Shown here piece by piece: positions 857 to 64,000 of a stretch of 64,000 nt of DNA. Under the pieces are notes generated by a model that worked only from the letters and a program-made list of their open reading frames with translations, did not search any database and was not told the DNA's origin. The stretch lies in contig CBDANS010000007.1 of assembly GCA_965197745.1 (NCBI GenBank), positions 1,344,001 to 1,408,000 of the forward strand. Direction: 5' to 3'. A program made the position numbers and the translations under genes. Position 1 is the stretch's first letter. Each line of letters begins with the position of its first letter. The DNA is from Opitutales bacterium. Its GTDB lineage: Bacteria > Verrucomicrobiota > Verrucomicrobiia > Opitutales > PNEW01.

Positions 857-1786
857 TTAAAGTAATAATGCCTTGCGAGCTGAGCTCATCATCGTCTTGG
901 CAGGGACGGTTGCCTCACTCCAGATTTGAAGCGAACGAACACCCTGCCAGACCAGCATGGTGAGACCATTAGCTGCTTTCATATTTCGGTCTGCCGCATG
1001 CCGCAAGAGGGCGGTTTCGGCTGATTTATATGTGAGGTCATAAACTTTCAGGGAGTGATCAAAATGATCCAATTCAATAGGGGGGGGATCATCAGCATGT
1101 AAACCTAGGGAAGTGGCATTTATCAGTATTCCGGTTTTTGGCAGGTCGAGGGGAGGGGATTCAAGATTGAACCCTTTTGTTTTATTAAAAAATCGGTGGG
1201 TGCGCAAAATATCAAGTAGTGATGTAAGGCGATCTTGACTGCGATTGCCGATCCACAATTCCTTGCATCCGCTTTCCAGACATTGAACCGCAGCTGATCG
1301 ACTCGCGCCACCAGCGCCCAGGAGGATAATGGTTGCGTCTTTAAATTCCGCATCCAGGTCTAGATTAATCGCTTTTTCGAGACCGTATCCATCTGTATTG
1401 TAACCGTGATAACCGCTGTCCTGCCAATGGAGATTATTGACGGCGCCAATACGTTGCGCGGCAGGATCAACTTTTGCAATAAGCGGTAAAGCATCGACTT
1501 TATGGGGAAGAGTAAGACTGAGCCCCATGAATTTATTCTTGTAGAATAACGACAGGGCCGTGGCCAGGTCTTCAGGTAGAATATCAAACTTGAAATAACG
1601 CCAATTTGAAAAACGTGCGTCATCATTACTCATTAACGAGAGGGCTGCATTATGCATCGAGGGACTGATCGAGTGAGCAATGGGATGACCGACAACGGCA
1701 AGAGAAACACCTTCGAATTTCCAGTTCTCGAGGTCAGTCAGGGTATCTACTCTGTCAGTATCAGAATCGTTCGCGAATGCCATCAA
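857..1786 (-). CDS. aroE: Shikimate dehydrogenase
   Basis: GHPIAHSISPSMHN, TLPHK, GAVN, NTDGYG, GAGGAS, INATSLG, NGLTMLVWQG motifs. Confidence 0.93.
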   Translation of the reverse strand: MMAFANDSDTDRVDTLTDLENWKFEGVSLAVVGHPIAHSISPSMHNAALSLMSNDDARFSNWRYFKFDILPEDLATALSLFYKNKFMGLSLTLPHKVDALPLIAKVDPAAQRIGAVNNLHWQDSGYHGYNTDGYGLEKAINLDLDAEFKDATIILLGAGGASRSAAVQCLESGCKELWIGNRSQDRLTSLLDILRTHRFFNKTKGFNLESPPLDLPKTGILINATSLGLHADDPPPIELDHFDHSLKVYDLTYKSAETALLRHAADRNMKAANGLTMLVWQGVRSLQIWSEATVPAKTMMSSARKALLL

Positions 1787-61739: not shown

Positions 61740-61863
61740 GCTTTACCTTATCTTGAATTGATTTAGTAACTTTATGCTTTATTTAGATTTTCTGCTCAGA
61801 GAGAATGGACAAGCAATTCAGGTAGTGTTTTTAAAATTCAATAATATTTAACCGTTTCTTCCT

Positions 61864-62238
61864 ATGGCTAAACATTCTATTAATTATGGAATAATTATAA
61901 TCGCTGTTAGTATCGCCTTTTATATCGGAACATACAGGGTCAGCATGACTGCATTGATCCCGGGAATAATGGGAGTTGTCATGGTCATTTGCGGTTTGCT
62001 CGCACGCAAGGAAAGTCGTCGCAAACACATGATGCACGTGTCGGCAGTTGTTGCTTTAATCGGTTTTCTGGCTACCGCAGAAGGATTATTCAGGTTGATC
62101 GGAATGATGAGCGGCAAAGAAGTCGAGCGTTCCATAGCATTCATTGAAATGGCGATCACTTCGGTTATATTCCTCCTCTATGTTATCTCCTCGGTTCAGT
62201 CCTTTCGAGAGGCGCGGAGGAATAGAGGGGCAGAGTGA
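61864..62238 (+). CDS. Hypothetical four-helix membrane protein
   Basis: Four hydrophobic segments; SMTALIP and RKHMMHVSA. Confidence 0.75.
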   Translation: MAKHSINYGIIIIAVSIAFYIGTYRVSMTALIPGIMGVVMVICGLLARKESRRKHMMHVSAVVALIGFLATAEGLFRLIGMMSGKEVERSIAFIEMAITSVIFLLYVISSVQSFREARRNRGAE

Positions 62239-62389
62239 TCAGTGATCAAATTAGCTTCGTCTTCGTCCGCCTCTGCCTCTTGTAGGTTACCCCGCGATGA
62301 TAAGACAACCTTTTGAGTCCTTCCGAGAATGGGTCATCGTAACACGTCGGAGGAAGGACTGGAAAAAGCTTTCAACAGTGTCTACGGTT

Positions 62390-62586
62390 GAGAGTGCCAG
62401 GAACTCCCGACTCCTAATAAGAGGAGCCGGGAGCAAATCGGAAGAGTTCATTCTGCCTCTGGAACCCGCGTTAGCGGAGTTCAAGACGAAGCCTGGGAAC
62501 TTCCGATCTAACCTGGCTAATCTCAAACAATTGAAAGAGCCCGGATTATACCCCCGCGAGCTCATCTTGACAAGACCGAGATAGCC
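62390..62586 (+). ncRNA. Predicted IS110 bridge RNA (ends approximate)
   Basis: Target guides TCTGCCTCT (62452-62460) and AGACGAAG (62484-62491); donor guides ACAATTG (62527-62533) and ACAAG (62570-62574); each pair sits in a stem-closed internal loop. Confidence 0.8.
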
Positions 62587-63519
62587 ATGAATGAAAAAAA
62601 ACACACCCTCATCGCCATAGATATAGCCAAAAACACCTTGCAAGTGCAAAGTGCAGAGCAAAGTTACGCTCTAAGCAACGACAAGTCGGGACTCAAAGAA
62701 CTGCTCAAAGCCATAGGAAAGATGGATGCCCCCTTTGTGGTGTGCGAAGCCACAGGAGGCTACGAGCGCGCCTTGTTGAGCGCTTTGCATGAAGCGCAGA
62801 TTGTGGTGTGCCTGATTAATCCTGCGCGCGTACGGGCCTTCGCCACGAGCGATGGCATCCGTGCAAAGACCGATAAGATCGATGCCAAGGTATTGCTGCG
62901 CTTTGCTCAGCAAAAGCAGTTGTCCCCAACAGCTCCCCCGACACCCGAACAGCAACAGATGACTGCTTTACTGGATCGACGCCATCATCTGAGCGAACAG
63001 CTTGGCCGCGAGAAGAACCGCTTGCAGAACAGTCCCAAGAGCATCCACCTTTCCATCCAACGCATGATCCGTTTCGTTGAGAACGAAATCGATCGCATCG
63101 ACAAACAGCTGCGATTGCTCATCAACGAGAATGATCCACTGCGTGCGAAAGCCGAACTTATCGCTTCAGTCAAAGGAGTCGGTGAAGTGACGACTTGGAC
63201 CCTCCTGGCTTATATGAGCGAAATGACTCATCTGGGCCGCAATCAGTTGGTCGCTCTTGCCGGTCTGGCTCCCTATAATCGTGACAGTGGCAAGACCCAT
63301 TCTAAGCGATCGATAAAAGGAGGTCGTGCCAAAGTCAGAAAATGTCTCTATATGGCTGCTCGCACCGCGGCTCAACATAACCCCGTGATCAAACCTTATG
63401 TGCAGAGGTTAGTCGATCGGGGAATGCCTTACAAATGTGCTCTCGTTGCGGCCATGAGAAAACTCCTTATTCATCTGCAGTCCCTTCTTAAAAAACATCA
63501 ATTAGCTCTTGCTTCATGA
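62587..63519 (+). CDS. IS110 DEDD recombinase/transposase
   Basis: IAIDIAK (D), CEATGGYE (E), KTDKIDA (D, D), GLAPYNRDSG (catalytic Ser loop), AAMRKLL. Confidence 0.96.
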   Translation: MNEKKHTLIAIDIAKNTLQVQSAEQSYALSNDKSGLKELLKAIGKMDAPFVVCEATGGYERALLSALHEAQIVVCLINPARVRAFATSDGIRAKTDKIDAKVLLRFAQQKQLSPTAPPTPEQQQMTALLDRRHHLSEQLGREKNRLQNSPKSIHLSIQRMIRFVENEIDRIDKQLRLLINENDPLRAKAELIASVKGVGEVTTWTLLAYMSEMTHLGRNQLVALAGLAPYNRDSGKTHSKRSIKGGRAKVRKCLYMAARTAAQHNPVIKPYVQRLVDRGMPYKCALVAAMRKLLIHLQSLLKKHQLALAS

Positions 63520-63752
63520 CACAATTGCTTCGTCCTCCCAGGTATTTACAATAATATCAAGGTAGAACACGCTGCCTGACGGCCATAAACTTTGCGACGG
63601 CTGTTCCCTGGCGCGTTTAATTATGTCGTAATTGAAGAAGCGTGCTAAGGACCAACTTTCGTCCCGCGATGGCGGGACTATGGCTGGCAGGCAGCCCGCT
63701 CCACCTTTCTTACTTTTTAATCTTTTTGTGCTTTTTGTGGCTATTTCAATAT

Positions 63753-63787
63753 AGACGTAGACGAAGAGGCAGACGAAGACGAAGCTA
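63753..63787 (-). repeat. GACGAAG-family repeat, inverted partner of 62252-62280
   Basis: AGACGTAGACGAAGAGGCAGACGAAGACGAAGCTA; its reverse complement shares TAGCTTCGTCTTCGTC with 62252-62267. Confidence 0.75.
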
Positions 63788-63894
63788 TATACTTTCTTAT
63801 GCTTCGAAGGGGAGACCTAAAATACTCTTGGCAGGAATATCCATCTTCTCCTTGATATTCGCGCTCACTTACTACTAAATGGCCACTTCATTAA

Positions 63895-63968
63895 GCGCCG
63901 CTAGCTCAATTGGATAGAGCACCTGATTACGGATCAGGAGGTTGGGGGTTCGACTCCCTCGCGGCGTG
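63895..63968 (+). tRNA. tRNA-Arg(ACG)
   Basis: GCGCCGCTAGCTCAATTGGATAGAGCA-CCTGA-TT-ACG-GA-TCAGG-AGGTTGGGGGTTCGACTCCCTCGCGGCGTG; CCA is not encoded (followed by CAA). Confidence 0.96.
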
Positions 63969-64000
63969 CAATGGATATTCAACAAATTACATAATTCATA

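Follow-up and report, generated by a model that had tools for sequence, protein, structure and literature searches.

An IS110-group insertion sequence of an Opitutales bacterium with a predicted bridge RNA whose target guides match its insertion sites

The subject of this article is an IS110-group insertion sequence (IS) at positions 62279-63529 of a 64,000-nt stretch of DNA from an Opitutales bacterium of the phylum Verrucomicrobiota (contig CBDANS010000007.1, positions 1,344,001-1,408,000), herein called the window. It is best explained as an autonomous IS that moves by bridge-RNA-guided recombination, as IS621 does, and we put the probability of this at about 0.88. The element encodes a recombinase of the IS110 family with all catalytic residues in place, and it occurs in four copies that sit at the site spelled by its own target guides. 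These guides lie in the internal loops of a structured left end and change together with the flanking DNA in related elements. The IS621-type bridge-RNA layout proposed in the initial annotation of the window is thus borne out by the insertion sites of the copies, by the joint changes of guides and flanks, and by compensatory changes in the fold; every string named there also sits where it was placed. All coordinates are window positions on the plus strand unless stated otherwise.

Architecture, recombinase, and copies of the element

The element measures 1,249 bp, with a left end of 306 nt and a right end of 8 nt. Its body (62281-63527, 1,247 bp) is enclosed by a left (62279-62280) and a right (63528-63529) CT core, and CT is found at both junctions in all four copies. 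The left end begins with TGTAG at 62281, and only 8 noncoding nucleotides separate the stop codon from the right CT. A direct reading of the element ends revealed no terminal inverted repeat. The long left end, the short right end, and the 2-nt core at both junctions are those of the IS110 group. Outside the element, the host DNA supplies the left target half TCTGCCT (62272-62278), which is the same in all four copies and equals guide positions 62452-62458, and the right target half TCGTCC (63530-63535), which was delimited by comparing the flanks of the copies. Within the element, the right donor half TGTAGG... (62281-62288, including the −10-like TAGGTT at 62283-62288) was assigned by reading the sequence, and the left donor half ACAATTG (63521-63527), which forms the right end of the element, by reading together with the copies.

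The region holds one long open frame (62587-63519), and this encodes the recombinase of 310 aa. The protein matches the N-terminal DEDD RuvC-like domain PF01548 (E = 2.4e-23) and the C-terminal transposase domain PF02371 (E = 2.6e-19), and it scores 209.6 bits against the NCBIfam model NF033542 ("IS110 family RNA-guided transposase"), which has a cut-off of 140. Its best solved relatives are the transposase of ISCro4 (2.7e-38, residues 8-300) and that of IS621 (6.7e-38, residues 9-300). Residues D12, E54, D96, and D99 align with D11, E60, D102, and D105 of IS621, and S234-G235 with S241-G242; mutation of these residues in IS621 abolishes recombination (Hiraizumi 2024, PMC11208158). The combination of a DEDD and a serine active site read from the bare sequence is therefore present in full. 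The protein is indeed compact, as had been said, yet its length falls inside the published range of about 300-460 aa for IS110 recombinases (Durrant 2024, PMC11208160). Two further, unrelated IS110-family DEDD domains are found elsewhere in the genome (C5:436686-437126, 39.7 bits; C6:564538-564885, 27.2 bits).

The genome (4.45 Mb in seven contigs) contains four full-length copies and one 40-nt partial match. The copies lie at four different loci, are at least 99.9% identical, and differ by at most one base each (G1146A in copy 2; T221C in copies 3 and 4). Three of them encode the same protein and copy 2 carries M280I; all are free of stops and retain the catalytic residues, which supports the description of the element as intact. 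Copy identity ends exactly at CT on either side. The flanks read TCTGCCT-CT and CT-TCGTCC in copies 1 and 2, with CT-TCGTCT on the right in copies 3 and 4, so that the flank comparison suggested at the outset found all four at the guide-specified site. These features point to recent activity. In public sequencing runs, which were examined as assembled contigs, the contig with the element has 4.2, 4.6, and 6.5 times the depth of the flank contig in runs of three studies, which fits four or more copies in those strains. The view that the lineage is little sampled is fair: an orthologue of at least 56% identity occurs in only three other genomes of the 40 relatives searched.

Several minor observations concern the copies and their surroundings. 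The element contig of one public run (X6) lacks 7 nt at window position 62642 in the recombinase gene and represents a frameshifted variant copy. To the right of the element, copies 1 and 2 have 88 of 90 nt in common (C7:1407530-1407619 and C7:2016487-2016576), and their left flanks differ; the common flank could belong to one repeat subfamily or could have been carried along or exchanged between the copies. Two joints in the run contigs (62281>63754 and 63543>63754) were set aside as repeat artefacts, their sides being only 28-33 nt long and lying in repeat DNA. In a sister genome, the syntenic locus, with the same upstream gene and the same downstream tRNA-Arg, is free of the element; it is not an exact empty site, since its hexamer tract is shorter.

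Guides of the predicted bridge RNA

In the published scheme, the 5′ strand of each loop has the top-strand sense of the left half of its substrate, and the 3′ strand complements the core and the right half as they read on the top strand (Durrant 2024, PMC11208160; Hiraizumi 2024, PMC11208158). Four guide strings of the element fit this scheme. The left target guide (LTG; 62452-62460) reads UCUGCCUCU, or TCTGCCTCT as DNA, and is an exact 9-mer of the left target half plus core. The right target guide (RTG; 62484-62491) reads AGACGAAG, the reverse complement of CT plus TCGTCT. The left donor guide (LDG; 62527-62533) is ACAAUUG, an exact 7-mer of the last 7 nt of the element, and is followed by AA. 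In the right donor guide (RDG; 62566-62574), ACAAG at 62570-62574 pairs with CTTGT by five contiguous matches, and CUU at 62566-62568 could pair with AGG if G62569 were flipped out. The core is included in the pairing of the LTG, RTG, and RDG.

The bases that follow each 3′ guide are the handshake positions, defined by comparison with position 7 of the other substrate (Hiraizumi 2024, PMC11208158). By this definition they are CC in the target loop (62492-62493) and AC in the donor loop (62575-62576). C62492 is complementary to position 7 of the donor (G) and A62575 to position 7 of the target (T).

The strings and the CT core had been recognized in the initial annotation, and all are in place. 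For the RTG, the assignment of the string holds, and the pairing is incomplete in the copy shown: the right target TCGTCC leaves one distal A-C mismatch to the guide-spelled TCGTCT, so that seven of eight positions pair here and all eight in copies 3 and 4, the two of the four that carry T. A chance control consisted of 5,000 first-order Markov sequences with the composition of the left end. Herein, 7 sequences contained the 9-mer and 56 the 7-mer; the 8-mer, with one mismatch allowed, was present in 1,333 and ACAAG, the 5-mer, in 1,316. No sequence combined the four matches. Being so common in the control, the RTG 8-mer and the RDG 5-mer carry little weight alone. As proposed in the initial annotation, the element may be reprogrammable.

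Sister elements with other guides

What we regard as the strongest evidence comes from a comparison with sister elements, in which guides and flanks change together; this supports the assignment of the LTG and RTG. The closer of them, termed the 84% sister after its protein identity, is found in a metagenome-assembled genome of an Opitutales bacterium of the same family (OY829953.1), where 10 copies were compared, three of them frameshifted. Its bridge-RNA region differs from that of the present element at 17 of 191 positions, and three of the 17 differences fall into the seven noncore positions of the LTG (UCAUCGU versus UCUGCCU here), which reads UCAUCGUCU. The left flanks read TCATCGTCT in four copies, TCATCGCCT in five, with a G-U wobble to the guide, and TCTTCGTCT in one, which places the element at TCATCG(T/C)-CT in nine of 10 copies. 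The RTG is unchanged, and CT-TCGTC follows nine copies and CT-TTGTA the tenth. Aligned, the host repeats read TCTGCC-TCT/TCG-TCTTCG-TCC here and TCTGCC-TCATCG-CCT/TCG-TCC in the sister, which would accordingly insert one 6-nt unit further along the same repeat. Such a slide by one repeat unit may be the reason why only the left guide had to change.

The second, the 56% sister, is a 310-aa orthologue with five copies in a genome of the same order (G041). Its LTG is CGCAUGUCU, with flanks CGCATGT-CT in three copies and CGCATAT-CT in two, and its RTG is UAGUGAG, with CT-CACTA in all five. The LDG is ACAGUUG and equals the element's own end ACAGTTG, so that relative to the present element an A-to-G change occurs on both sides; the RDG is a contiguous CUACAAG. 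Together, the three Opitutales elements form a natural series of guide reprogramming, one step of which would be the 6-nt slide. The same layout with yet other guides is found in orthologues from Babeliales (33% identity) and Syntrophobacteraceae (34%). Handshake position 7 is complementary in both loops of four of the five elements, and in the fifth it is so for the guide-specified base. Multicopy sets from Chloroflexia and Rickettsiales were dropped, as their boundaries lack a clean CT core, and the element L049 from Pseudomonadales, the right end of which could not be fixed confidently, was left out of the guide comparison and kept in the five-row pair comparison.

Fold of the left end

The left end contains three structured parts of the predicted bridge RNA: a 5′ stem-loop (62404-62433) and two modules that enclose the guides. 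The target-binding module (62437-62507) consists of an outer stem, two guide strands, and an inner hairpin (62462-62482), and the donor-binding module (62515-62586) likewise of an outer stem, guide strands, and an inner hairpin (62537-62563). The last base of the donor loop stands directly ahead of the ATG of the recombinase gene. The two stems that had been named around the guides, ATCGGA..GTTC with GAAC..TCCGAT and GGCTA-A-TCTC with GAGA-TAGCC, pair as described. The proposed check by folding was carried out on 62390-62590 and gave −76.8 kcal/mol, compared with −52.3 ± 4.5 for shuffled sequences (z-score −5.4; none of 200 shuffles as stable); the layout was essentially recovered when the guide strands were held open.

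Pairs that change on both sides support the helices. They make up seven of nine pairs in helices 1-2 of the 5′ stem-loop, nine of 10 in the outer helices 3-4 of the target loop, where 100% of the cells are paired, and six of nine and three of eight in helices 6 and 7 of the donor loop. Over six aligned sequences, 95.9% of 246 cells hold standard pairs and two-sided changes are seen in 27 of 44 pairs, figures that flatter the structure somewhat since the alignment was fitted to our own model and three of the six rows are close kin. No shuffle of 500 reached these pair statistics, and sliding the partners by one to three columns left 27-46% of the cells paired with three to seven two-sided changes. 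A covariance model (R1), for which the element and its 84% sister were used, detects the element of Babeliales at E = 8.6e-6; it reached five of 70 distant loci, three of which are copies of that one Babeliales element, the other two being weak. With an alignment so fitted, the data support a bridge-RNA layout that is probably conserved among the orthologues. A search of 61800-64000 against Rfam 15 (E up to 1) left the element, including its SL-A hairpin described below, unmatched and returned only the tRNA-Arg and a subthreshold match on the same tRNA. A competing helix of GCCAGG (62396-62401) with CCTGGC (62512-62517) overlaps the foot of the donor stem and is beyond a covariation test in the Opitutales sisters, as it is invariant there.

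The target as the end of a dispersed intergenic repeat

All four copies lie at TCTGCCT-CT-TCGTC(C/T), the site spelled by the two target guides. The pattern TCTGCCTCTTCGTCY has 14 unoccupied exact sites in the genome, and the 15-mer ending in T occurs 11 times (0.008 expected). Within two mismatches, 134 sites are found, 19% of which lie in open frames of at least 150 aa, compared with 85% of 400 random positions. Thirteen of 19 neighboring site pairs within 700 bp face each other, and 49 genome matches were found for the 271 nt on the right side of the element. Hence, the target coincides with the inverted end of an intergenic repeat that is dispersed through the genome, which would offer the element many safe landing sites. 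An unoccupied perfect target in the TCGTCT variant lies on the minus strand at 63759-63773, 230 nt away, where the host repeat has its opposite inverted end. The sister genome retains a single unoccupied perfect site for the sister's own guide.

The repeat itself (62250-62280, 63530-63800, and 49 other places) is composite: inverted ends built of the 6-nt units CTTCGT and CTGCCT enclose structured DNA of 56-500 bp. Next to some copies stands a GC hairpin, GTCCCGCnnnnGCGGGAC (here 63652-63672), which resembles the Ssn-nuclease motif.

Promoter and transcription

Circularization would bring a −35-like TTGCTT (63509-63514), which lies within the last codons of the recombinase gene, 17 nt from TAGGTT across the junction of the ends. 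This geometry of the junction promoter, as first proposed, is right, and the hexamers are poorer than it implied, with three of six consensus positions each. TTGCTT is kept in both sisters, and TAGGTT is kept in the 84% sister and is TAGGTC in the 56% sister. The Babeliales orthologue carries TTGACT-17-TATGTT at the same distances from its ends. Such a putative junction promoter is likely, and the bridge RNA would be expressed from it.

The bridge RNA might also stem from read-through of the gene at 61864-62238, which lies on the same strand and ends 40 nt before the element, or from some other start. This source has a real though clearly smaller chance. It gains from the modest junction hexamers and from a consensus scan of 62150-63700 that yielded no plus-strand promoter, a scan that does not cover the promoter rules of this phylum; in addition, the IS621 bridge RNA is described as weakly expressed from integrated copies (Hiraizumi 2026). 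The exact recurrence of the geometry in Babeliales and the retention of TTGCTT in the two sisters, with TAGGTC for TAGGTT in the 56% sister, speak for the junction promoter instead, and the coverage of the scan lessens the weight of its empty result. On the minus strand, a promoter-like site within the donor loop (62573-62545) reads TTGTCA-17-TATAAT and matches 11 of 12 positions, its −10 being TATACT in the 84% sister; it would give an RNA that is antisense to the target loop and reads out of the left end.

Alternative explanations and proposed mechanism

Besides the favorable bias of the pair-count alignment, a number of points weigh against bridge-RNA-guided movement. The LDG string is exact at 62527-62533, as the initial annotation had it, and the guide does not pair with the CT core, because ACAAUUG is followed by AA where CU is expected. 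The core dinucleotide is part of all four guide pairings in one account (Durrant 2024, PMC11208160), and the structure of IS621 shows its LDG paired with the first base of the core (Hiraizumi 2024, PMC11208158); the corresponding bases are UU in the 56% sister and CU in the Babeliales and Syntrophobacteraceae orthologues. A degenerate relative in a third genome of the family (L091; 85%, with a TAG stop) has the same LTG and a flank, TCTTCCA-CT, with two mismatches to it. Neither the circle junction nor the empty site was seen in the contigs of the four public runs covered by the junction search. The junction hexamers match 6 of 12 consensus positions, and seven are matched by a competing pair composed of TTGCTT at 63525 and GATAAG at 62299, the −10 of which is not conserved in the 84% sister.

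Three other accounts of the data were weighed. The copies could have arisen by segmental duplication or recombination between repeats, with the element now inactive, for which the common right flank of copies 1 and 2 and the unseen circle and empty site might be cited. This is improbable: the common 90 nt belong to the repeat family with 49 genome matches, each of the four copies has a different left flank beyond the repeat, the right flanks of copies 3 and 4 are others again, the copies cease to be identical precisely at the CT cores, and the proteins are intact and, apart from M280I, identical. That the protein alone chooses the site, the matches between left end and flanks being coincidence or a by-product, deserves very little credence. 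The frequent chance occurrence of the RDG and RTG strings would suit such a view, yet the four matches never arise jointly in the control, they sit in internal loops of a covarying fold, and guides vary in step with flanks across five elements of 33-84% identity. Equally little speaks for a left end that encodes protein rather than RNA. A frame of 95 aa (62297-62584) is open here and in the 84% sister, but its substitutions are spread evenly over the codon positions (10, 11, 12), compared with 37, 20, and 88 for the recombinase, and in the three distant orthologues checked none of the three frames is free of stops; the frame was rejected as a gene on these grounds.

Under bridge-RNA-guided recombination, transcription of the left end, whether it starts at the junction or elsewhere, would produce an RNA composed of a 5′ stem-loop and two further stem-loops with internal loops. 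Of these loops, the first would pair with the host site TCTGCCT-CT-TCGTCT and the second with ACAATTG-CT-TGTAG, where the element ends are joined in the excised circle. Excision or copying-out would yield this circle, and the RNA would bridge its junction and the repeat end. Excision has been suggested to need only the donor halves and perhaps to release a single strand (Xie 2026, preprint; Hiraizumi 2026). A tetramer of the 310-aa DEDD plus Ser recombinase, composed of two dimers with one per loop, would exchange strands at the CT core, presumably both the top and the bottom strands through a phosphoserine intermediate as in IS621 (Hiraizumi 2024, PMC11208158). The element may still form circles and be active at present.

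Comparison with known systems

The element is a new example of a well-described system, the mechanism, layout, and repeat targeting of which are already in print. The recombinase of IS621 from Escherichia coli has 326 aa. The two elements share both Pfam domains and the catalytic residues, the CT core, the long left and very short right end, a 9-nt LTG composed of left target plus core, an RTG complementary to core and right target, a donor loop with LDG and RDG, a donor inner hairpin that is longer than the target inner hairpin, and a target in a dispersed intergenic repeat, which for IS621 is the REP element (Durrant 2024, PMC11208160; Hiraizumi 2024, PMC11208158). They differ in that the protein described here is a distant relative (E 6.7e-38 over residues 9-300), the RTG has 8 nt versus four paired in IS621, pairing of the LDG with the core C is lacking, and complementarity at the handshake is confined to the first base of each loop (same sources). 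The left end of 306 nt, with SL-A ahead of the 5′ stem-loop, as well as a donor loop that ends at the start codon are further differences. ISCro4 (PDB 9t56), the best-scoring solved relative, was compared on the protein only.

ISPpu10 and ISPpu9 of Pseudomonas putida, which belong to the IS110 group and target REP elements, are likewise multicopy, each with its copies in one conserved intergenic repeat. ISPpu10 needs a GC-rich stem-loop 5′ of its target (bioRxiv 10.64898/2026.03.19.712850); ahead of all four occupied sites of the present element, CTTCGT-type hexamers and no hairpin were seen by eye. No solo bridge-RNA copies were found in this genome. For ISPpu9 of the same species, solo ssr9 genes reportedly exist, and Partridge and Hall are said to have described, in 2003, a case from the same recombinase family in which a different repeated element provides the target with its terminal inverted repeat. 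In the IS1111 group, the guide RNA lies in a long right end, and long subterminal inverted repeats (7-17 bp) are present. An IS1111-type reading was rejected, because the right end with its 8 noncoding nt is too short and the structured RNA lies in the left end.

Among the papers covered by a full-text search, none deals with bridge RNAs of IS110 elements in Verrucomicrobia; the supplementary tables of Durrant 2024 may already contain the element; that work analyzed 5,511 target and 2,201 donor pairs (PMC11208160). The element thus adds one more well-supported bridge recombinase, of 310 aa in 1,249 bp and from Verrucomicrobiota, and in itself opens no new question. Its two sisters display natural retargeting of the guides with an unchanged donor loop. 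A matched set of this kind could help engineers of bridge recombinases and serves as a natural control for the base-pairing model.

The SL-A hairpin

Upstream of the canonical bridge RNA lies an extra conserved hairpin, SL-A (62316-62360), for which RNAalifold gives 16 pairs, six of them compensatory. Conservation is found in its core, CGAGAAUGGGYC...CUCGUCGGAG, and covariation in its outer stem. According to a covariance search (model R2), SL-A occurs in this genome only in the four IS copies and in the phylum in 15 of 151 sampled genomes, this one included. It is not specific to IS110: besides standing upstream of IS110 genes (L109, L111, L114, and L123), it is found upstream of an IS256-type gene (L110) and on the opposite strand just past the 3′ end of IS3-type rve genes (L115, L119, and L120), there inside the element and about 110 nt from its end. 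In G137, all three loci examined have it solo in spacers between ordinary genes. Further loci with SL-A comprise L110, L115, and L116-L123. Wherever an element end is known, SL-A reads inward from the nearest end. By eye, it has no likeness to the Ssn-nuclease motif (PMC11893778), for which no pattern search was made.

Tentatively, SL-A may represent a structured module that is exchangeable and not yet described. It forms an internal part of noncoding ends in an IS110 subfamily and in an IS3-like element, and it neighbors an IS256-type gene. A factor of the host or the element that acts on single-stranded RNA or DNA might recognize it, one possible role being that of a signal that insulates the element from incoming transcripts or directs their processing. 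Its sharing among unrelated IS families is the one point that may repay a separate look. In a further genome, a remnant of about 160 bp (L106; G186:C20, about 1400-1620, minus strand) keeps the IS110 left start, SL-A, and a right-end-like ...GACAGTTG-CT without a recombinase gene or guide loops, and may be a deletion derivative.

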